Shown here: one piece after another, positions 5,087-57,437 of the stretch
Layout: each line of letters starts with the position of its first letter
How positions within the stretch are numbered: position 1 is the first letter of the stretch
Assembly: GCA_947630015.1 (NCBI GenBank)
Contig: CANRFY010000001.1
Location: 9,894 to 73,893 of the forward strand
Direction: 5' to 3'
From: an uncultured Clostridia bacterium
GTDB taxonomy: Bacteria; Bacillota; Clostridia; Oscillospirales; CAG-272
DNA: 64,000 nucleotides
The notes under the pieces: model-generated
Database searches by the model: none
Told to the model about the DNA's origin: nothing
The model's input: the letters and a program-made list of their open reading frames with translations, nothing else
Translations under genes and position numbers: made by a program

Positions 5087-6142
5087 ATGAGCATTGAAAA
5101 ATCAAGCTTCGGTGTAACAAAAGACGGCGTTGCCGTCACATCGTATACGATGAGCAACGGCAAAATGAGCGTCCGCTTCATCGATCTCGGCGGCACCGTG
5201 ACAGATATAAACGTACCAGATAAAAACGGCGTTCTTGCAGACGTCGTTCTCGGTTACGACGATCCCGATCTTTATCTTACGTGCGGCGGCTACCCGGGCG
5301 CGATACTCGGACGCGTAGGGAACCGCATAGGCGGCGCGAAATTCACGCTCGACGGCGTGCTTTATAAGCTTTACGTGAACGATCACGGCAATCATCTGCA
5401 CGGAGGCAGGATCGGATTTGACCGCCGTATGTGGGACGTTAAGATCATAAGCGACGGCGACGAGCCGGAGGCGGAGCTGACATACGTATCGCCCGACGGT
5501 GAGGAGGGCTATCCCGGGACGCTCACCGTCCGCGTCACATACAAGCTCACAAAGGACTGCGAATTATCGATGCGCTACACTGCTGTCACGGACAAACGCA
5601 CCGTTCTGAATCTGACGAATCATTCGTATTTCAATCTCGCGGGAGCAGGCTCCGGCGACGTGCTTGATCATGAGCTGCTCGTCGCAGCAGATGAATTCGG
5701 CGAGGTCGATGGCGAATTGATCCCGACGGGACGGTCGATCCCCGTAGACGGAAGACCGCAGGATTTCAGAGTCAGAAAGCGCGTAGGGCAGGATATCGAC
5801 GCGGATGACGAACAGCTCCGTTACGGACAGGGTTACGATTTGACGTATATCCTTCATAACGGCGGCAGACTCGAGCTTGCCGCAAAGGTATGGGAACCCG
5901 TGTCGGGACGGACTATGACGGTCTACACCGATCAGCCCGCCGTACAGCTTTATACGGGCAACTGCCTTGACGAAAGCGAACCGCCGTTCAAAAACGGCGC
6001 GCGCAAGATAAAGCACGCGGGACTATGTCTTGAAACGCAGCATTATCCCGACAGCCCGAATCATCCGGAGTTCCCGTCCGTTGTGCTGTCGCCCGGCGAA
6101 GTATTCGATCACACGACTGTGTTCGCGTTCTCCGTTGAGTGA
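5087..6142 (+). CDS. galM: Aldose 1-epimerase (mutarotase)
   Basis: LTNHSYFNL motif, 351 aa, 2 nt after galE. Confidence 0.85.
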   Translation: MSIEKSSFGVTKDGVAVTSYTMSNGKMSVRFIDLGGTVTDINVPDKNGVLADVVLGYDDPDLYLTCGGYPGAILGRVGNRIGGAKFTLDGVLYKLYVNDHGNHLHGGRIGFDRRMWDVKIISDGDEPEAELTYVSPDGEEGYPGTLTVRVTYKLTKDCELSMRYTAVTDKRTVLNLTNHSYFNLAGAGSGDVLDHELLVAADEFGEVDGELIPTGRSIPVDGRPQDFRVRKRVGQDIDADDEQLRYGQGYDLTYILHNGGRLELAAKVWEPVSGRTMTVYTDQPAVQLYTGNCLDESEPPFKNGARKIKHAGLCLETQHYPDSPNHPEFPSVVLSPGEVFDHTTVFAFSVE

Positions 6143-40150: not shown

Positions 40151-40179
40151 TTGCAATATTTATCTTAAATTAGTATAAT
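40151..40179 (+). promoter_or_regulatory. Near-consensus sigma-A promoter of the decarboxylase operon
   Basis: TTGCAA-N17-TATAAT, about 130 nt upstream of the first ATG. Confidence 0.7.
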
Positions 40180-40310
40180 GAGTTAGAATGGGTTTAAATG
40201 GGTTAGAATGATCCGCCGATCCAGTCGATTGCTTTTATCTAAGGAATGTCGGAGCTGATCGGCCGCACAGGCTCGTTCCGACGTCCCCTAATATGAAACC
40301 GGAGGTTTTT

Positions 40311-45309: not shown

Positions 45310-45322
45310 TGGTATAAGTTTT

Positions 45323-45366
45323 GTGGGGGAGGAAAAACTTTTCGAGAAAAGTTTTTCCTCCCCCAC
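45323..45366 (+). terminator. Perfect 20-bp hairpin terminating the decarboxylase operon
   Basis: GTGGGGGAGGAAAAACTTTT-cgag-AAAAGTTTTTCCTCCCCCAC. A T-rich stretch follows. Confidence 0.75.
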
Positions 45367-45432
45367 ACCCCCTCTTTTTCAAAAGCTTTTATTAAATGTC
45401 ATACCCCTTTTGAAATAACTGCACATTAAAAT

Positions 45433-45462
45433 AAAGAAGCCGCCGGAGCGGCTTCTTTTTTT
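45433..45462. terminator. Bidirectional terminator between convergent operons
   Basis: AGAAGCCGC-cgga-GCGGCTTCT with an A run before and a T7 run after. Confidence 0.75.
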
Positions 45463-47852: not shown

Positions 47853-49295
47853 CTACGGCTCAAGATGCGAGCTTATGACGGCGCACATCGATTCTATCGC
47901 ATCCTGTCCGCGACCCTCCCCGACAGACTGATCTGCGTAATCGACTGTCTCAAGCACATCCGTTATCTCGCCGATCATATGATCCGACGTCCGCGAGCTG
48001 ATCACGGCGCTCGTCTGACGCGGCGTATCGGTCTTTTTGACCGTCAATCCCTGCGCGCGGTACGCCTCGCACATCGTCACATACGCATACTGTATCTGCT
48101 TTTTCATATTCGGCTGCGAATTGAGCGCCGACAAAAACTCGCGATAGCTTCGCGTCCGTTCGGCGCGCGTCTCGAATTCATGGATCGACGCCCGCTGCAA
48201 GCTGATCTCCTCGTCCTTGTAATTCGTGAATTCGTATTCCATCTCGCGCTGTCCGTAGTAAAACGAGAACAGATCCATTATATACATAAACAGCTCTCGG
48301 AACCATTCCTTTACGGCGGCGACGGCACGCCTCACATAATCTGTGCCGCGCAGGATCAAAAATACTATGCTGCCGATGAAAAGTATAACGAACAGAACGA
48401 TGAAAAACCGCTCGCCGATCGTCTGTCCTTCAAATACGAGGCGGCCAAGACTTCCCTCTCCGTCGTCCGAAACGTCGACGTCATACGAATCTCCGGCGCG
48501 TCGTCTCAAATATGCGCCGAGAATGACCGAGAATATGAGCCGCGCGAAGAACGATACGCCGAACAAAACGGACGCTGCGACGATCAACAGCACGATAACG
48601 CCGAGCATCATTACCGCGATCAGCCGGACGTTATACAGCCTTGCGCCGTTCGATATCGCCGACAGCGTGTCGGCGGCGCGCCGCTGTATGTGCGTCTGAT
48701 TCAAAACGATCACTGACGTTATTGTGAATACGGACAGATATATTATCATGCCGTCAGTGCCGAGTCCTATGACCGAGCAAAGCAGAAACGACAGCAAGAA
48801 CAGAGTAAAATACGTCAGCATCGTGCGCAGCGAAATGACGCGGTGCGCGGGATAGAACCATAAAACGACGCCGGAGGCGAGTGATACAAACACATATATC
48901 GCAAATAAAAACGGTATCACGGACTGATCGTTATATACCAATATCGCGCCGATTTTGAGAAGCATCCGCATAAGCGCAGGTCCCGAGAAAAACGCGCCAA
49001 CGGCGGCCGCCGCGCACAGCGTCAGCGGCAGCGCCGCTTTGATCGGTGCGAACGCCGATTTCGCGGATTCGTATCCGGTCTCAACGGAATAATCCTCTCT
49101 CGAATGCGCGCGAGGCTCCGTGACACGCCCGTATAGCGCCTGAAGTCCGTATCCAGCCGCCATCAATAAAAGCGTCGGAATCCAGGCGGCAAACGACGCC
49201 TTTTGAATGAATACGTACAAAATCTGCATCATAACGGCGCTGACGGCGACGCACGTTATCAGCTTATATATTTTATTGATCTGCTTATGCGTCAT
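47853..49295 (-). CDS. Polytopic membrane protein with a DUF4129-like C-terminus, third gene of the MoxR/DUF58 module
   Basis: Many TM helices. ATG at 49295 follows RBS GGGAGGAG. Context is MoxR-DUF58. Confidence 0.6.
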   Translation of the reverse strand: MTHKQINKIYKLITCVAVSAVMMQILYVFIQKASFAAWIPTLLLMAAGYGLQALYGRVTEPRAHSREDYSVETGYESAKSAFAPIKAALPLTLCAAAAVGAFFSGPALMRMLLKIGAILVYNDQSVIPFLFAIYVFVSLASGVVLWFYPAHRVISLRTMLTYFTLFLLSFLLCSVIGLGTDGMIIYLSVFTITSVIVLNQTHIQRRAADTLSAISNGARLYNVRLIAVMMLGVIVLLIVAASVLFGVSFFARLIFSVILGAYLRRRAGDSYDVDVSDDGEGSLGRLVFEGQTIGERFFIVLFVILFIGSIVFLILRGTDYVRRAVAAVKEWFRELFMYIMDLFSFYYGQREMEYEFTNYKDEEISLQRASIHEFETRAERTRSYREFLSALNSQPNMKKQIQYAYVTMCEAYRAQGLTVKKTDTPRQTSAVISSRTSDHMIGEITDVLETVDYADQSVGEGRGQDAIESMCAVISSHLEP

Positions 49296-49311
49296 CGTCC
49301 GCTCCTCCCGT

Positions 49312-50511
49312 TTATTCAAAATGCGTTTTGTAATATACCTCGACATTGGGCGGTATTATCTGCGCGTTGCGGTTTGTAGACGTTATATAGAACGTGACCT
49401 TTACGCCGTCGCGTTCCATCTCGTCGTGGAATATTATCATGCGTTCGCTTATATACGACGATACGACGACGAGATTTCCCGAATCGGCGAACGCCTCCTT
49501 ATGCTCAAGCACGAAATCGAGCATCCGCTCGATCGGACACGATATTTCAAGCTTCAGCGCCGCGAGCAGGCGAAGGGCGAGTATCATATCGCGCTTGCCC
49601 TCATACGCCGGCGTCATCATGATCTTGCTGCCTACGCCCGATTCGTCCGCGCGGAATTCATCCGACAGCGATTCCGGCGGAGTGTTTGCTATAATGCGCA
49701 CCGGCACATTCTCGCTCGATATTAAATCGAGAATTGACGCGACGACGGTGACGCAATGCTCGATATCGACGGGACTTTCGGGGCGCTGCGGATCGCGCTC
49801 TATATCGCGCGAATTCATGTTCAGCATTATATTGAATCTGTGGCGGCGCGTGTATTCCTCGCAGTTTACCATAAGCTTGCCGTGTACTGCCGTCTGCTTC
49901 CAGTTGATCTTATTCATCGGATCAAACGACGTGTAATCGCGCGCGCCCGCGATCCGCAAGGGATCGGTAAGCAGACTCGATTCGGCGCGCACGTCGCCAA
50001 GCTGATAATGCGACGCCGTAAATCGTCCGTCAAGCTCGACCGGCTTCGGCAGCACGACGACAGTGTTTGCCTTCTTAGGCTCGCATTCGTATCCCTTCGA
50101 TATCGGATTCATGCCGAACATATCGTTGGACACGATCACGGCTCCGCCGATCGAATATATGCCGCGCGTCATGCAGTTGACGCGCCATCGCCTGCGTATC
50201 TTTTCGCGGCTCTTAAGCACGAATACGCTCTGGACGTGCGAGCGGAGCGAGTCGCGCGGCGTCCCATGCTCGTATGTCGTTATGCGGAAACGAAGTCCGT
50301 CCGGCAGCGTCGTGTCGACCTTCGCATACGGGACCGGCATCGTCTTCCCGTTCGTGATCTCTTCATAAATGAAGATGTCCTCGCCCTCGAACGTCTCCTC
50401 GGCGCTGACTTTAACGTCATAATCTATATCGTCAAACGAATGCTTTCCGAATGCGCGCGACTGTATAAGATATACGGCGATTATCGCTATGAACAGCGCA
50501 AGAAAATACAT
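49312..50511 (-). CDS. DUF58 (vWA-related) protein
   Basis: N-terminal TM, RDYTSFDPMNKINWKQTAVHGKLMV motif, classic position after MoxR. Confidence 0.75.
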   Translation of the reverse strand: MYFLALFIAIIAVYLIQSRAFGKHSFDDIDYDVKVSAEETFEGEDIFIYEEITNGKTMPVPYAKVDTTLPDGLRFRITTYEHGTPRDSLRSHVQSVFVLKSREKIRRRWRVNCMTRGIYSIGGAVIVSNDMFGMNPISKGYECEPKKANTVVVLPKPVELDGRFTASHYQLGDVRAESSLLTDPLRIAGARDYTSFDPMNKINWKQTAVHGKLMVNCEEYTRRHRFNIMLNMNSRDIERDPQRPESPVDIEHCVTVVASILDLISSENVPVRIIANTPPESLSDEFRADESGVGSKIMMTPAYEGKRDMILALRLLAALKLEISCPIERMLDFVLEHKEAFADSGNLVVVSSYISERMIIFHDEMERDGVKVTFYITSTNRNAQIIPPNVEVYYKTHFE

Positions 50512-50515
50512 ACTC

Positions 50516-51463
50516 TTATGCCACAGGCACCGGAACGGCGTCGATAATATATTCGATTATGTTGGCGTTTGACTCCGACAGGCGGATCGTTCCCTGCGAA
50601 CGCGATATTATCCTGTGCGCGAGTACAGGCACGGCGACGTCCTTTACATCGTCGGGAAGCACATGATCGCGCCCGTCGATCGCGGCCCATGCCTGCGCCG
50701 CTCTCATCAGTGAAAGCGTGCCGCGCGGGCTGACGCCGAGACGCACGCGCTCAGACGCGCGCGTCATCGATACAATATCGACGATATAGCGCTTTATAAG
50801 CTCGCTCACATGGACGCGTCTGACCGCATCTTGCGCCGCGACAATGTCGCCGCGCGTGCATACGGCGCCGATCGAATCGAGCGGCGACGATTCCATATAT
50901 TCGTCGAGAACGGCAATTTCGGCGTTCTTTTCGGGATATCCGAGCGCTAATTTCATGAGAAATCTGTCCGTCTGTGCCTCCGGCAGCGGAAACGTCCCCT
51001 GCGATTCGATCGGATTCTGCGTCGCGATCACGAAAAACGGAGGTTCGAGCTTATATGTGACACCGTCGATCGTAGCCTGCGATTCGCCCATGCATTCGAG
51101 CAGCGCGGACTGCGTTCGCGGCGTCGTTCTGTTGATCTCGTCGGCGAGCAGTATATTTGTAAACACGGGACCGCGGCGGAAGATGAATTCGTTCTCCTTC
51201 TGCGAATAGAAGTTGATGCCCGTTATATCGGACGGCAAAAGATCGGGCGTGAACTGCACGCGCTTGAATTCGGCGTCTATCGATTTGGCAAGCGCCTTTG
51301 ACAGCGTCGTTTTGCCCGTGCCGGGGATATCGTCGAGCAGAACATGACCCGACGACAAAAGCGCCGCCGTTATATATTTTATCTCTTTGCGCTTGCCGAA
51401 TATGACTTTTTCGACGTTGTCGATCACATTTTTCGACATCAATGCAACATCTCTTGTCTCCAT
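50516..51463 (-). CDS. MoxR-family AAA+ ATPase
   Basis: DIPGTGKTT Walker A, LLADEINR Walker B, 315 aa. Confidence 0.9.
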   Translation of the reverse strand: METRDVALMSKNVIDNVEKVIFGKRKEIKYITAALLSSGHVLLDDIPGTGKTTLSKALAKSIDAEFKRVQFTPDLLPSDITGINFYSQKENEFIFRRGPVFTNILLADEINRTTPRTQSALLECMGESQATIDGVTYKLEPPFFVIATQNPIESQGTFPLPEAQTDRFLMKLALGYPEKNAEIAVLDEYMESSPLDSIGAVCTRGDIVAAQDAVRRVHVSELIKRYIVDIVSMTRASERVRLGVSPRGTLSLMRAAQAWAAIDGRDHVLPDDVKDVAVPVLAHRIISRSQGTIRLSESNANIIEYIIDAVPVPVA

Positions 51464-51569
51464 TCCGTACCTCCGGCAGAATATATTATAATTTAAATTA
51501 TACGGCGTTCAGCATCCTCGACGTCAACTTCCCCGCAGCGCATTCACATCGCGCATCGATCCAGTGATG

Positions 51570-51980
51570 ATATTAAACAGAAGTTACTACCTAAATTTTC
51601 TCGTCGTCCGTAGGACGACTTTGACATTTACAGCGTTTATTAAAACAGAAATTTCTTCCCATTCTTTCGTCGTCAGTATGACGACATTGACATAAGTGTT
51701 TTTATTAAAACAGAAATTTCTACCTTAATTTTCTCGTCGTCCGAAGGACGACATATAACTATTGAAATTTATGTTTCAATAAACGCTTCCTTATACTGTC
51801 GTCGCCGCTCTGCGGCGACATTGACATTCACAGCGTTTATTAAAACAGAAATTTCTACATTATTTTCTCGTCGTCCGTAGGACGACATTAAATCAATGAA
51901 ATTTATGTTTCAATAAAAACTACCTTAATCTGTCGTCGCCACGCAAGTGGCGACTTTGACATTATTGTTTTTATTATACC
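51570..51980. repeat. Tandem array of six GC-stem hairpins within nested 65-nt and 134-nt AT-rich direct repeats
   Basis: Hairpins lie at 51603-19, 51669-85, 51736-52, 51801-19, 51870-86 and 51935-54. TTATTAAAACAGAAATTTCT occurs at 51637, 51702 and 51837, with a degenerate copy at 51571. TGAAATTTATGTTTCAATAAA occurs at 51763 and 51897. Confidence 0.9.
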
Positions 51981-52169
51981 ACAGCGATCGTACAAATGCA
52001 ATATTTCCAAAATATACATCCGCACCTCTTAGCGATCGGCGCTTTTACGCCTGTCGTTTCGCCGCAGATCGATCACGTTGATATAATATTATCACACGTT
52101 CATTAGATTGTCAATAGCGTACATAAAAATATTTGCCGCTGACGCTTGTTTTTCCGTGAAAATTTGTGA

Positions 52170-52190
52170 ACGAATTATGAACAAATTCGT
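52170..52190. promoter_or_regulatory. Candidate operator: perfect 7-bp inverted repeat upstream of the ABC promoter
   Basis: ACGAATT-N7-AATTCGT ends 22 nt before the -35 element. It sits in a run of (A/G)TGAA repeats spaced about 10 nt apart. Confidence 0.4.
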
Positions 52191-52211
52191 CAAATATGAA
52201 TTTCTATTCGC

Positions 52212-52240
52212 TTGACTTTTACAAATCGCGCAACTATAAT
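52212..52240 (+). promoter_or_regulatory. Near-consensus sigma-A promoter of the ABC operon
   Basis: TTGACT-N17-TATAAT, 34 nt upstream of the ATG at 52274. Confidence 0.75.
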
Positions 52241-52273
52241 TATACTTGTTGCGACATCGCTTTCGGAGGAACT

Positions 52274-54604
52274 ATGACCGAGCTGTTTGATATACCCGCC
52301 GGCGTTAAATCGGCGTTTGAGACGCGCGGCGTCCCATACGATAATGTTGTAATCGCCGCTGCGACGGATCAGTCGCGAGACTGCGTGCCGTCCGACAACT
52401 ACATATTTTTGACGGATACTGATCTTATCGTCATGGCAGGCTCCATGACGGGCGTATCCGATTCGAGATCGATCGCGCGCCGCGCGCGCACTCCGCGCAC
52501 GTTCGAGGTTCTGTCATATGACAGCTGGGAGCTGTCGCGCATCGATTCGTTCGCCGTGGAGGAGATGATCTCATCCGCGCGCATCGTTGCGCGCATGAAG
52601 CCCGACGCTGACTCGCTGCCCTATACGGTACTTGTCGCGAATCTTTCAAATACGTACAAGAGCGAAGCATATAAATTCGTGCGCCTCTCCAACGTCGCGC
52701 TCGCAGGAGACGATCCCGCGTCGCATCCAGATGCGCATATTTATGAGGACGACGACAAAAAGGAAGAGCTGTTCTGCCCCAAATGCGGCAGGCGTTACGC
52801 CGATCCGGAACGCAAAATATGCCCGCACTGCATGGATAAGGTCCACATCCTCAAGCGTTTCTCGGGATTCTTCCTCAGATATAAGGTCCATCTGTTGATG
52901 ATATTCCTGACGCTTGTCCTGACGAGCGGACTCGGCGTTCTTTCGCCGTACATCTCGAGCGGATTTTACTACGACGAGGTCCTCTCCGAGGACGGAAAAT
53001 TCGCGGGACAAATTCTGCTCGTGATCGGCATCATCTTCGCGACAAGGCTCATCTCGATGTTCGTCACGATGCTGAACAACTATATAACGTCCGTCATCGC
53101 CGCGAAGGTCACATACGACTTGAAAAAGGAAATATTCCATTCGATCGAACGACTCTCGATCAGCTATTTTACGAACAGGCAGACGGGCGGTCTTATGACG
53201 CAGGTCAACCGCGACGCGAACAATATTTACCGCTTCTTCTGCGATACTGTCCCGTATTTTCTCGTCAATATATTCCAGGTCATCGGCGTATTCATCATAA
53301 TGATGATGTTCAACTGGAAGCTGACGCTGATTTCGTTTATCACGGTGCCGCTCATGGCACTCTGCATGAAAAAACTGTTCGAGAAAATGGACAAGATGCA
53401 CGCGAAACGATTCTCGACGGCGCGCTCGATGAGTTCGCTTTTGTCGGACGTTCTGACCGGCATCCGCGTCGTTAAGGCGTTTTCCAAGGAGGACGAGGAA
53501 AGCGAGCGCTTCGAGGGACGGAGCAGACGCGTCGCCGAGGCAGATAAAAAGGCGTCAATCTACAACACGACCGCCTTCCCTATCGTCAATTTTCTGCTCT
53601 ATATCGGAAATATCATCGTCTGGGGCGTCGGCGGCTGGATGGTAATGACGAGTCCCGACGGCTCGTTCAAATACGGTATGCTCGCGACGTTCGTGGCGTA
53701 CATGAATATGATATACAGCCCGATGGGATTCTTCATCGACGTCGTCTATACGATGACGGACAGCCTTAATTCGATGAACCGCCTGTCCGAGATCATGGAT
53801 GCGATCCCCGACGTCGTCGAAAGCGATCATCCCGTATCGATCGGCGAGGCTAAAGGCCACGTCGAGTTCCGAAACGTCGAATTCTCGTATGAAAAGAACC
53901 GCAAGATCATCGACGGCGTCTCGTTCGACATCGAACCTGGGAAGATAATCGGCATCGTCGGGCATACCGGCGCGGGCAAATCGACGCTCGCGAATCTTCT
54001 CATCCGCCTCTACGATACGATCGCGGGCGAGATTTTGATCGACGGCGTCAACGTGCGCGATATCCCGTTTGCCGAGCTGCGCCGCAATATCGCGATCGTC
54101 TCGCAGGAGACGTATCTGTTCATGGGTACGATCAAGGAAAACATCTGCTACGCAAAGCCAGACGCGACCGATCTTGAGATATTAACTGCGGCCAAACTGG
54201 CGGGCGCTCACGATTTCATCGTAAAGCTGCCGGACGGCTACGATACGATGATAGGCTTCGGCTATAAGGATCTGTCGGGCGGCGAGCGCCAGCGCATATC
54301 GATCGCGCGCGCGATACTGCTGAATCCGCGCATCCTCATCATGGACGAGGCCACGGCCGCCATGGATACGCAGACCGAGCGCCAGATACAGACCGCGCTC
54401 GAGCAGCTCATAAAAGGGCGCACAACGATAATGATCGCGCACCGTCTGTCGACTCTTCGCGACGCGGATCATCTGATCGTCATCGAAAACGGCAAAATGC
54501 CCGAGTTCGGGACGCATACGGAGCTTTTGAAGAAAAAAGGCATTTACTACGGCTTATATAAGATGCAGCTTGAAGCGCTGCGCAACATCGGCATCGAAGG
54601 ATAA
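52274..54604 (+). CDS. ABC exporter (TMD-NBD half transporter) with a roughly 190-aa N-terminal cytoplasmic domain ending in a zinc ribbon
   Basis: GHTGAGKST, LSGGERQR, ILIMDEAT. CPKCGRRYADPERKICPHC at aa 168-186. ATG at 52274 follows RBS GGAGGA. Confidence 0.88.
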   Translation: MTELFDIPAGVKSAFETRGVPYDNVVIAAATDQSRDCVPSDNYIFLTDTDLIVMAGSMTGVSDSRSIARRARTPRTFEVLSYDSWELSRIDSFAVEEMISSARIVARMKPDADSLPYTVLVANLSNTYKSEAYKFVRLSNVALAGDDPASHPDAHIYEDDDKKEELFCPKCGRRYADPERKICPHCMDKVHILKRFSGFFLRYKVHLLMIFLTLVLTSGLGVLSPYISSGFYYDEVLSEDGKFAGQILLVIGIIFATRLISMFVTMLNNYITSVIAAKVTYDLKKEIFHSIERLSISYFTNRQTGGLMTQVNRDANNIYRFFCDTVPYFLVNIFQVIGVFIIMMMFNWKLTLISFITVPLMALCMKKLFEKMDKMHAKRFSTARSMSSLLSDVLTGIRVVKAFSKEDEESERFEGRSRRVAEADKKASIYNTTAFPIVNFLLYIGNIIVWGVGGWMVMTSPDGSFKYGMLATFVAYMNMIYSPMGFFIDVVYTMTDSLNSMNRLSEIMDAIPDVVESDHPVSIGEAKGHVEFRNVEFSYEKNRKIIDGVSFDIEPGKIIGIVGHTGAGKSTLANLLIRLYDTIAGEILIDGVNVRDIPFAELRRNIAIVSQETYLFMGTIKENICYAKPDATDLEILTAAKLAGAHDFIVKLPDGYDTMIGFGYKDLSGGERQRISIARAILLNPRILIMDEATAAMDTQTERQIQTALEQLIKGRTTIMIAHRLSTLRDADHLIVIENGKMPEFGTHTELLKKKGIYYGLYKMQLEALRNIGIEG

Positions 54605-55220: not shown

Positions 55221-57437
55221 ATGGGTGAAAGACTCGCGCTCACTTCCCGTCTGTGCCGCATAAACAGCGACGTTTGCGCCGACGACGTTATCGTCGCCTT
55301 CGCATACGATCTGCCGCGCGAGGGTTACGGCACCGTCGACGGCTTCGTCGCGGTCACGACGGATCGCGTCTATGTATACGAGGACGACCGTCTGCTCGCC
55401 GATTACAACGCCGCGGATGTGACGGAATACATATTCACAAACGGCGTCGGATGCGTATTTGCCGAATGCGTTGCGGACGGCGTTCACGTCATGCTGTGCC
55501 GCGCGTCGATGTCGCATAAGGATACGATATCGTCGATAATATGGCAGCTTTCGCGCCGCCTCGAGCGCGGCACGTACAGCTACGCGTATGAGGAGGACAC
55601 GGACGTCAAATGCCCCACCTGCGGCCGCAGGTATCCGCCGGGATCGCACGTATGCCCGCACTGCACGGCAAAGAAGGGCTATTTCAAACGGATCTGGGAG
55701 ATCGCAAAGCCGTATAAAATGTTCATATTCTGCTCGGTGCTGCTCTATATCGTTTCCGCCGCGTTGCAGCTGCTGCCCGCATATCTGAACAAGATAATGA
55801 TCGACGACTACATCAAAGCCGAGGGTGCGCTCGAGCTGTCGAAATCGGCCGATTTCATAATCGGATTCGTCGGCGTCGTGCTGTCGCTGCTCGGAGTAAA
55901 CATCATAACGCGCGCCGTCGGTATGCTGCGCGGCGTCACGCTTATCGAGGCAGGCACGCGGATGATGGTATCGCTCCGATCGTTGGTGTTCGGCAAGATT
56001 CAGCAGTTGTCCGTTGCAAAGATATCGAAGCGCACGGCGGGCGAGCTTATGAACCGCGTGACAGACGATACAAACCAGCTTCAAAACTTCATCATGAACG
56101 ATATCGGCGGATTCTTCGAACAGATTCTGATCTTCTTCGCCGTATCGATCATCATAATCCGCTATGACTGGCGGCTCGCCGCGCTCATACTGATTCCGGT
56201 GCCGCTCGTCCTCGTCGCAAACAGGCTGTTCCATCAGTATATGCACCGCATATTCCACCGTCAGTGGGTGATGAATTCGCGCGCGAATACGATACTGCAC
56301 GACATTTTCAGCGGTATCCGCGTCGTCAAGGCGTTCGGTATGGAGCGCCGCGAGATGGAGCGCTACGACAAGGCGACGCTCGACGAATGCAACGCCCAGA
56401 TCAAGGCCGAGACGTTCTTCGCCAAATTCTCGCCTCCGATGAGCTTTCTGATGGGGCTTGGCGAATTCTTCCTTCTGTTCTATGTCGGGACAAAGATATT
56501 GAACAAGGAAATGACGCTCGGCGATATGCAGCTGTTCACGACGTATGTTTCGATCATATACGGGCCATTGCGCTGGCTGTCTAATTTCCCGCGCCGATAT
56601 GAGCGCACGATGACGAGCGTCGTCAAGATATTCGATATCATCGACGAGGACGTCGACGTCGCCGATAAGGACAACGCGCGCGAGCTTGACATTGTAGGCA
56701 AGATCGAATTCGAGGACGTTTCGTTCGGCTACGACAGCGGCAGCAACGTGCTGCACAACATCAATCTTACAGTCGAACCCGGCGATTTCGTCGGCATCGT
56801 CGGACGCTCCGGCGTCGGCAAATCGACGCTCATAAACCTTGTGATGCGCCTCTACGACGTCGACGACGGCACGATCAAGATCGACGGCGTCGATATCCGC
56901 GATATTTCACAGTCTTCCCTGCGCTCGCAGATAGGCGTCGTGCTTCAGGAGACGTTCCTGTTCTCCGGCACCGTATACGAGAACATCGCATACGCAAAGC
57001 CGTCGGCGACGCGCGACGAGGTACTCGCCGCCGCGAAACTGGCGGGCGCGCATTCGTTCATAATGAAAATGCCCGACGCATACAACACGCGAGTCGGCGA
57101 ACGCGGACATACGCTTTCGGGCGGCGAACGCCAGCGCATAGCGATAGCGCGCGCGCTGCTGCACGATCCGCGGATCCTGATACTCGACGAGGCGACGGCG
57201 TCGCTCGACACCGAGACCGAAAAGCAGATACAGGACGCGCTTCAGATTTTGTCCCGCAACAGAACGACGCTCGCCATCGCGCACCGTCTGTCGACGCTGC
57301 GCAATGCGACGAAGCTCATAGTCCTCGACAAAGGCACCGTCGCCGAGGTCGGCACTCACGACGAGCTGATGCGCCGCCGCGGAATTTATTACGGACTCGT
57401 CATGGCGCAGCGCCAGATGTCAAAAATGAGCCGGTGA
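55221..57437 (+). CDS. ABC exporter (TMD-NBD half transporter) with a roughly 150-aa N-terminal cytoplasmic domain ending in a zinc ribbon
   Basis: GRSGVGKST, LSGGERQR, ILILDEAT. CPTCGRRYPPGSHVCPHC at aa 131-148. Confidence 0.88.
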   Translation: MGERLALTSRLCRINSDVCADDVIVAFAYDLPREGYGTVDGFVAVTTDRVYVYEDDRLLADYNAADVTEYIFTNGVGCVFAECVADGVHVMLCRASMSHKDTISSIIWQLSRRLERGTYSYAYEEDTDVKCPTCGRRYPPGSHVCPHCTAKKGYFKRIWEIAKPYKMFIFCSVLLYIVSAALQLLPAYLNKIMIDDYIKAEGALELSKSADFIIGFVGVVLSLLGVNIITRAVGMLRGVTLIEAGTRMMVSLRSLVFGKIQQLSVAKISKRTAGELMNRVTDDTNQLQNFIMNDIGGFFEQILIFFAVSIIIIRYDWRLAALILIPVPLVLVANRLFHQYMHRIFHRQWVMNSRANTILHDIFSGIRVVKAFGMERREMERYDKATLDECNAQIKAETFFAKFSPPMSFLMGLGEFFLLFYVGTKILNKEMTLGDMQLFTTYVSIIYGPLRWLSNFPRRYERTMTSVVKIFDIIDEDVDVADKDNARELDIVGKIEFEDVSFGYDSGSNVLHNINLTVEPGDFVGIVGRSGVGKSTLINLVMRLYDVDDGTIKIDGVDIRDISQSSLRSQIGVVLQETFLFSGTVYENIAYAKPSATRDEVLAAAKLAGAHSFIMKMPDAYNTRVGERGHTLSGGERQRIAIARALLHDPRILILDEATASLDTETEKQIQDALQILSRNRTTLAIAHRLSTLRNATKLIVLDKGTVAEVGTHDELMRRRGIYYGLVMAQRQMSKMSR

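Follow-up and report, generated by a model that had tools for sequence, protein, structure and literature searches.

A strain-variable hairpin array in a moxR leader: probable low-copy palindromic insertion elements in an uncultured Clostridia bacterium

In a 64,000-nt stretch of contig CANRFY010000001.1, from an uncultured Clostridia bacterium (the window), six GC-rich hairpins are arrayed between moxR and a divergent operon of ABC exporters. The array probably represents low-copy palindromic insertion elements, similar to transposable elements of the miniature inverted-repeat kind (MITEs) and repetitive extragenic palindromes (REPs), which would have expanded into a strain-variable cluster resembling bacterial interspersed mosaic elements (BIMEs) and would be co-transcribed into the moxR leader. 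The element family is most likely new and comprises two related subtypes of ~62-69 nt, in which AT-rich inverted arms surround a central GC hairpin. The feature is most likely a selfish repeat of an ordinary kind whose insertion site is unusually neat, not a new regulatory RNA. A preliminary description of this DNA, made without database searches, had proposed a tandem small structured RNA, a REP/BIME-like element or an iteron-like regulatory array serving one of the flanking operons.

Insertion into two promoters

The array interrupts a promoter of moxR. The -10 hexamer of P1 (Table 1) is split by the array and then rebuilt: the minus strand of the window reads gctgTGGTA-TA-[array]-TA-ATATCATC, and removal of the array leaves TGGTATAATATCATC (TGGTA-TA-ATATCATC), which resembles the intact TGATATAATATTAC of the related loci L012 and L014. 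Homologues of P1, of the form TTGCAT-17-TGnTAYAAT, are present on the minus strand in the relatives L012-L015. P1 was not listed by the promoter scan, its -35 matching at only 3/6 positions. A second promoter, P2, also lies to the right of the array, which is thus placed inside the moxR 5' leader, so that any role at the RNA level would be exerted on the minus strand; the array is predicted to be transcribed within that leader, transcripts from P2 included. The preliminary description had recognized no standard promoter geometry here, a view that the conserved moxR promoters flanking the array on the right do not bear out.

In eight related genomes (uncultured rabbit-gut Clostridia, with MoxR ~76-83% identical), the divergent moxR/ABC arrangement is kept and the spacers, of 246-401 nt, contain the same promoters, while the hairpins of the array are absent from all of them. 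The orthologous intergenic DNA of these species cannot be aligned except at the promoter boxes.

A relative of the array is found at a second locus, unrelated to moxR. L248, a contig of the same metagenome-assembled genome as the relative L016, carries an element at 5516-5584, upstream of genes for a LytTR response regulator and a histidine kinase. The sequence TGgTACAAT-aaacgcagatt-ATGTCAAA-GTCGCCG ca CGGCGAC-GACAAAATAAGGAAACGTTTTTTAT of L248 aligns with TGgTATAAT-aaaaacaata-ATGTCAAA-GTCGCCAC ttgc GTGGCGAC-GACAGATTAAGGTAG... on the minus strand of the window. Its best match is unit U4, with ~80% identity over ~70 nt (L248 5518-5579), and 30/39 positions match in the flanks that lay outside the search pattern. 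Orthologues of the regulator in four other genomes have an uninterrupted promoter (e.g., ttttgTGGTATACTcat) and short leaders. At L333, the nearest empty site, the regulator is at least 90% identical and the spacer can be aligned throughout, with one clean block of 125 nt less, while the filled sites of L248 and L332 both read ttttgTGGTA[125 nt]TATACTcgt. The first bases of the L248 insert restore the -10 as TACAAT, the counterpart in the window being TATAAT. Both insertions therefore split a TGnTATAAT promoter within its -10 hexamer, at the identical position, and the hairpin stands 10-12 nt from the -10 in the moxR and LytTR-regulator leaders alike.

Two further palindromes were observed next to these elements. 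In L248, an unrelated palindromic block (5583-5645), with 15-bp arms (AAATTCCCGCACCGG / CCGGTGCGGGAATTT) and a 24-nt loop, adjoins the hairpin unit in the 125-nt insert; no other copy of it was found in any fetched locus. In the window, a perfect 16-nt palindrome, TATAATTTAAATTATA, lies at 51487-51502, between the array and the moxR ribosome-binding site (RBS). It is overlapped by a possible extra minus-strand promoter, TTGACG (51527-51522) and TATAAT (51502-51497) separated by 19 nt, which could keep moxR expressed independently of the array.

Anatomy of the array

The array spans 51576-51976 (401 nt, GC 0.35) in a moxR-to-ABC spacer of 810 nt (51464-52273, GC 0.38), and the GC content of the whole window is 0.545. 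The six perfect hairpins, the AT-rich spacer and the TTGACAT motif directly after H1, H2, H4 and H6 all agree with the preliminary description. Of the 36 perfect GC-rich hairpins in the window whose stems reach 7 bp or more, five fall inside 350 nt at the array. Arm and loop sizes are 7+3+7, 8+3+8 and 8+4+8 in the array and 6+4+6 in L248.

Tandem Repeats Finder (TRF) reports a period of 134 nt at the array (2.2 copies, score 409), and the 20-mer TTATTAAAACAGAAATTTCT occurs in three exact copies where shuffled sequences give an expectation of 0. A second AT-rich repeat, TGAAATTTATGTTTCAATAAA, is the reverse complement of TTATTAAAACAGAAATTTCT with three mismatches. Hence the AT-rich motifs surround the hairpins as inverted-repeat arms (a/a', 24 nt, 92% complementary) and are not merely the nested direct repeats first described, of which the three exact copies and the 134-nt period stand. 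The AT-rich motif includes a perfect 10-bp palindrome (AGAAATTTCT), and the 20-mer itself is where a type-1 arm, TA and a type-2 arm meet. The array can accordingly be read as six hairpin units of ~62-69 nt, each edged by TA or CA dinucleotides, in the order ta-U1-ta-U2-ta-U3-ca-U4-ta-U5-ca-U6-ta (Table 1). U4, the nearest relative of the L248 element in the window, has the extension TGTC-AAT-stem-GACA.

Only short, non-conserved open reading frames (ORFs) cross the units. Small minus-strand ORFs starting at ATGTCAA (e.g., MSMSPQSGDDSIRKRLLKHKFQ, compared with the L248 peptide MSKSPHGDDKIRKRFLYENSRTG) were rejected, as they have no Shine-Dalgarno sequence and their frames differ among units, and the likeness of the peptides is already expected from 80% DNA identity. 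The TTGACAT boxes were likewise rejected as plus-strand promoters, there being no -10 at a workable spacing.

Pairing in the stems is preserved across copies. Among 14 distinct hairpin units from the window and its strain variants, 93% of cells are paired and double changes occur in 3/8 pairs; the covariation score is 0.214 vs 0.108 in shuffles (0/500 reach it), and the paired cells drop to 18-63% in register-shifted controls. These results confirm the compensatory changes reported earlier and extend them to the strain variants; they support the view that pairing is kept over sequence, which counts against a simple operator for a dimeric protein on double-stranded DNA. The covarying units are paralogues linked to one another by duplication and gene conversion, and template switching can homogenise palindromes with no selection at work. 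For such repeat copies, covariation of the stems is not by itself evidence of a functional RNA.

Variation within the species

Contigs with identical or near-identical MoxR, all from one European Nucleotide Archive study (short-read assemblies, coverage ~2-4x), fall into four haplotypes (Table 1), of which A, B and C are each backed by independent samples. U5 and U6 form the sole 134-nt copy kept in haplotype B, where the repeat copies at 51571 and 51837 meet in a hybrid junction, pointing to recombination between repeats. The chimeric units of haplotype C join a type-1 5' arm to a type-2 3' arm, and its H5 has acquired a new compensated pair (ATCGTCC gta GGACGAT). The stem-loop found twice in haplotype D is a one-sided intermediate of the compensated H2 of the window. 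U1 is mismatched or partly decayed in haplotypes C and D. The array is thus neither conserved nor stable: sister strains have two or six units, some of them decayed.

Origin and spread of the elements

If the array consists of insertion elements, one two-hairpin copy of ~134 nt would have entered at a TA within the -10 hexamer of P1, a state still seen in haplotype B. The end of the element (YAAT) would rebuild the -10, so that transcription would run on and the hairpins would join the moxR 5' untranslated region (UTR) on the minus strand. The copy may then have grown and shrunk as its own repeats recombined, producing the 66-nt chimeric units, the 134-nt periodicity and the six-hairpin allele. 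The retention of pairing suggests that the element depends on its stem-loop, whether because it is recognised or processed as a folded strand, because template switching homogenises palindromes, or for both reasons. Its spread would presumably have been by transposition. An effect on moxR mRNA stability or translation may follow and, by analogy with other repeats, a cis effect is plausible, the 5' UTR being longer by 134-401 nt and gaining two to six stable stem-loops. However, both the decay of some copies and the polymorphism in presence and absence speak against a function under strong selection.

Several points weigh against this explanation. The inserts are flanked by TA in the window and by TA or GGTA in L248, and, the -10 box being AT-rich, a repeat of 2-4 nt is not long enough to establish a target-site duplication. 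The second half of the L248 insert is weakly similar to a type-1 unit of the window, in the arms only. nhmmer searches with the units gave no further copy in the remaining 63 kb of the window, in ~1.8 Mb of fetched loci or in ~280 kb from relatives, and the elements are known so far from two loci in two species, one per genome, the source genome being represented by the 64-kb window. No autonomous insertion sequence or transposase matching the elements was found among the ORFs scanned (~1-59 kb of the window, the range of all gene scans reported here). Finally, transcription across the array is predicted from promoter motifs.

Wider searches gave a similar picture. When 185,579 genomes were scanned for exact occurrences of the AT-rich 20-mer, or of the type-1 hairpin together with its flank, single chance matches were returned (e.g., in a histidine-kinase gene of L010), although exact patterns of this kind would overlook most copies at only 80% identity. 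With the pattern loosened to hairpin plus TTGACAT, 91 stretches of the same collection matched, L248 being the one true relative. Viral contigs, plasmids and phages yielded no homologue, the sole viral pattern match (L328) being due to chance, and a metagenome scan with a degenerate a/a' pattern was uninformative, with single chance matches among those listed. The preliminary description had regarded two outcomes as damaging to its proposal. Loss of the hairpins from orthologous spacers is what all eight related genomes display; the other, a common dispersed repeat, is approached weakly by two loci in two species, with no high-copy dispersal seen.

In a bolder form, which we regard as unlikely, a family of very small palindromic mobile elements (~65-130 nt) in gut Clostridia would specifically target the -10 of TGnTATAAT promoters and carry its missing half at the tip, so that an insertion would leave the promoter active and graft one or more stable stem-loops onto the extreme 5' end of the mRNA. 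Growth and shrinkage of the array would then tune operons strain by strain, as a mobile 5'-UTR module.

Relation to known repeat elements

Bacterial MITEs are shorter than 200 bp, with terminal inverted repeats (TIRs), TA at the termini, filled and empty sites and transcripts forming stable stem-loops (PMC2229807). The units described here are non-coding and measure 62-69 nt, the pairs 134 nt and the L248 insert 125 nt. TIRs are present as perfect 8-nt repeats in U4 and as 13-nt arms in U3 and U5, and filled and empty sites are seen in L248/L332 vs L333 and, at P1, in the window vs L012-L015. Membership among MITEs is therefore supported on size, TIRs and filled/empty sites. The array resembles the Correia elements (NEMIS) of Neisseria, which are also small and non-coding, have TIRs, insert at TA, end in a promoter-like sequence, through which an insertion may make or restore a promoter, and are defined by filled and empty sites (PMC2229807). 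Correia elements are co-transcribed into stable stem-loops able to alter mRNA processing (PMC2229807), and the array would likewise form stem-loops in a leader. However, Correia elements are 105-155 bp long, with TIRs of 24-26 bp and hundreds of copies per genome, and belong to a proteobacterium (PMC2229807), whereas the array units (62-69 nt, 134 nt when paired) have arms of 8-13 nt around a GC hairpin and are known from two loci in uncultured gut Clostridia.

The REP/BIME-like element proved the nearest of the three original proposals. The array shares with the REPs and BIMEs of E. coli and Pseudomonas the short GC-rich palindromes with conserved pairing, the alternation of two types with specific linkers in strain-variable tandem clusters, and plausible transcription as RNA hairpins (PMC3733652). 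The tag, geometry, copy number and location of REPs do not agree. The array lacks an unpaired GTAG/CGTC tag, GTAG occurring only across loop and stem of the type-1 hairpins. CGTC REPs have stems of 8-9 bp starting with A/T pairs, loops of 4-5 nt and a CCA tail (PMC3733652), whereas the array stems are of 7-8 bp, start with G:C and have no CCA tail. REPs number from tens to thousands per genome and lie mostly downstream of genes, whereas the array forms the only cluster in 64 kb and lies in a promoter and leader. The text of PMC3733652 makes no mention of Firmicutes or Clostridia. No RAYT (Y1 transposase) gene was present among the window ORFs scanned. The array is best classed as working like a MITE/REP-type palindromic repeat, and not as a REP.

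Within the Firmicutes, RUP and BOX of Streptococcus pneumoniae provide a precedent for small intergenic repeats, and BOX elements have a modular build in which the internal modules vary in number. RUP (107 bp, ~100 copies) inserts at TA, as the array would have done, and its mobilisation is attributed to an IS630 transposase acting in trans (PMC2229807). The likeness to RUP and BOX is one of description, with no sequence similarity seen, none having been sought, and no IS630-like partner was found among the window ORFs.

Alternative explanations

A functional cis-acting RNA module is an improbable alternative, if the best placed one. Here, one or more 5'-proximal stem-loops would bind an RNA-binding regulator or block 5'-end-dependent decay, at a selected spacing from the transcription start of several operons, and would here have been multiplied to tune moxR. 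The equal distance from the -10 in the moxR and LytTR-regulator leaders fits this idea, as do the covarying stems and one a/a' mismatch that is G.U on the minus strand, as read from the sequence. The minus strand also folds more stably than the plus strand (-147.9 vs -127.4 kcal/mol), the z-scores being near -12 for both because any inverted-repeat array would fold well. However, presence and absence differ among very close genomes at both loci, all other orthologous leaders examined lack the module, and copies have decayed in haplotype C, whose T.G pairs are on the plus strand and are thus A.C in moxR-sense RNA. Nor is there a match in Rfam 15, a scan suggested in the preliminary description: with the spacer searched at a permissive E-value and the whole window at the gathering threshold, no family reached its gathering score in the spacer (best MIR821, 31.5 bits vs 249), and the other matches were due to chance or were tRNAs elsewhere in the window. 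The tandem small structured RNA first proposed falls with these observations (absence from orthologous spacers, two to six units among strains with decay, no Rfam match), and so does the iteron-like regulatory array. Both also leave aside that the one relative seen elsewhere was inserted at a promoter that is not orthologous, and that this site is cleanly empty in a sister genome.

Equally, it is unlikely that the array is a local minisatellite, i.e., a hairpin-bearing part of the moxR leader that slippage or unequal crossing-over had copied in tandem, immobile and without function, in which quasipalindrome template-switch repair keeps the stems paired. Much of the internal structure would suit such an origin: the 134-nt tandem array found by TRF, the partial copies of the repeat motif at the array ends, the hybrid junction of haplotype B, which indicates homologous recombination, the one-sided intermediates alongside compensated states, and the absence of other copies nearby. 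What it does not explain is a homologous unit (~80% identity) at a non-orthologous promoter of another species, with a precise 125-nt difference between filled and empty sites and the same interrupted position in the -10 hexamer.

A protein-binding array on double-stranded DNA, similar to operators or iterons, is very unlikely. The targets of a dimeric regulator would be the GC palindromes, or AGAAATTTCT / TGAAA-N6-TTTCA, just downstream of the moxR promoters, and the palindromes at +5 to +25 of P1 are in a typical repressor position, with the perfect 10-bp palindrome of the AT-rich motif as a further potential site. However, symmetric stem changes and variable arm spacing would not be tolerated by a protein that reads half-sites, no regulator gene is adjacent, the copy number is polymorphic and the relatives lack the array. 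A degenerate or orphan CRISPR-like array, with hairpin repeats of 28-33 nt at a period of 66-68 nt (the D1 family has five copies of 33 nt, 66-68 nt apart) and a stem-loop plus 8-nt tail that presumably resembles type I repeats, is effectively refuted by the homology of its "spacers" to one another in both orientations, besides the lack of cas genes among the window ORFs and the single unit in L248. CsrA-type GGA sponges, TRAP-like repeats, LytTR boxes (ACAGTTAAG-like) and cre, Rex or CodY boxes gave no convincing match.

Features of the window

Pfam scans of the window ORFs returned ordinary chromosomal housekeeping genes and no transposase, cas, plasmid or phage genes. In the plus-strand operon that starts at 52274, a DUF1854 gene separates two ABC exporter genes. 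The coordinates of the features are given in Table 1.

Table 1. Location of the array, its units, flanking signals, empty and filled sites, and haplotypes. Positions are those of the window unless a locus is named.
Feature	Position or locus	Strand	Description
moxR	50516..51463	-	AAA_3 / AAA_lid_2 ATPase (Pfam); first gene of the operon with the array in its leader
Native moxR leader 3' of array	51464..51575	-	RBS GGAGG, 16-nt palindrome, possible extra promoter; predicted from sequence
U1	51576..51640	-	holds H1; chimeric, type-2 left arm (ATAAACGC...ATGTCAAA) and type-1 right arm
U2	51643..51705	-	holds H2; chimeric as U1; top stem pair compensated C:G -> A:T
U3	51708..51776	-	type-1, holds H3; 13-nt inverted arms AAACAKAAATTTC ... 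GAAATTTCTGTTT
U4	51779..51840	-	type-2, holds H4; perfect 8-nt TIRs ATAAACGC...GCGTTTAT
U5	51843..51910	-	type-1, holds H5; arms AAACAKAAATTTC/GAAATTTCTGTTT
U6	51913..51974	-	type-2, holds H6; begins right behind the rebuilt -10 of P1
H1	51603-19		GTCGTCC gta GGACGAC
H2	51669-85		GTCGTCA gta TGACGAC
H3	51736-52		
H4	51801-19		
H5	51870-86		
H6	51935-54		
Promoter P1 of moxR	51973..52001	-	extended -10 TGgTATAAT 51981-51973, -35 TTGCAT 52001-51996, 17-nt spacer; read from sequence
Promoter P2 of moxR	52086..52114	-	TTGACA-17-TGaTAATAT; kept in every related spacer (form TTGACA-17-TGnTAWAAT)
ABC operon promoter	52212-52240	+	
Nearest empty site	L333		TGGTATACT
Filled site	L248		TGGTA(CAATAAACGC ... 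GAATTTACGG)TATACT
Further empty sites	L329, L330, L331		
Haplotype A	window, L091, L092, L095		six units
Haplotype B	L093, L094, L232, L235		a single 134-nt copy with two hairpins; shorter by exactly 268 nt (2 x 134)
Haplotype C	L233, L234		six units, with mismatched chimeras as the two nearest to moxR
Haplotype D	L236 (partial)		H1 and H2 are GTCGTCA gta GGACGAC

Other observations were made around the two operons. Upstream of the ABC promoter (52165-52201, plus strand), TGTGAAC-N4-TATGAAC direct repeats with an 11-nt period and a third copy, TATGAAT, look like a candidate response-regulator site (OmpR/PhoB-type) that would control the ABC/DUF1854/ABC operon; most related spacers keep the TGTGAAC/TATGAAC pair upstream of the ABC -35 (e.g., TATGAACtaaaTATGAAC in L016). 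The exporters themselves (52274-54604 and 55221-57437) have N-terminal extensions of ~170-200 aa before the membrane domain, that of the first containing a zinc-ribbon-like CPKCGRRYADPERKICPHC, and the ABC/DUF1854/ABC arrangement is kept in relatives. MoxR operons usually hold a DUF58/vWA-type partner. The next two genes after moxR (49312-50511 and 47853-49346, minus strand; 399 aa and ~480-497 aa) have no Pfam match, and are followed by genes for a Halogen_Hydrol (XpaC-like) protein and a GNAT protein. Further away, a perfect hairpin with a 21-bp stem (TGTGGGGGAGGAAAAACTTTT cgag AAAAGTTTTTCCTCCCCCACA) at 45322-45367, at the end of a 591-aa ORF, is probably a bidirectional terminator, and a second terminator-like hairpin lies at 45433. 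A 10-nt tandem repeat, AATGGGTTAG, with 3.4 copies (TRF), is located at 40177-40210, just upstream of a carboxyl-transferase gene.

Implications

To our knowledge, few small repeat elements of this kind have been characterised in gut Clostridia. If the explanation favoured here is true, the array and its relative in L248 would define a previously undescribed family of small palindromic repeats from uncultured rabbit-gut Clostridia. They would also provide a natural example of an insertion that splits the -10 box of a promoter yet rebuilds it, and so becomes part of an mRNA leader. The occurrence of two-unit and six-unit alleles within one cohort would constitute a natural experiment on how the load of leader hairpins relates to expression of the MoxR operon.

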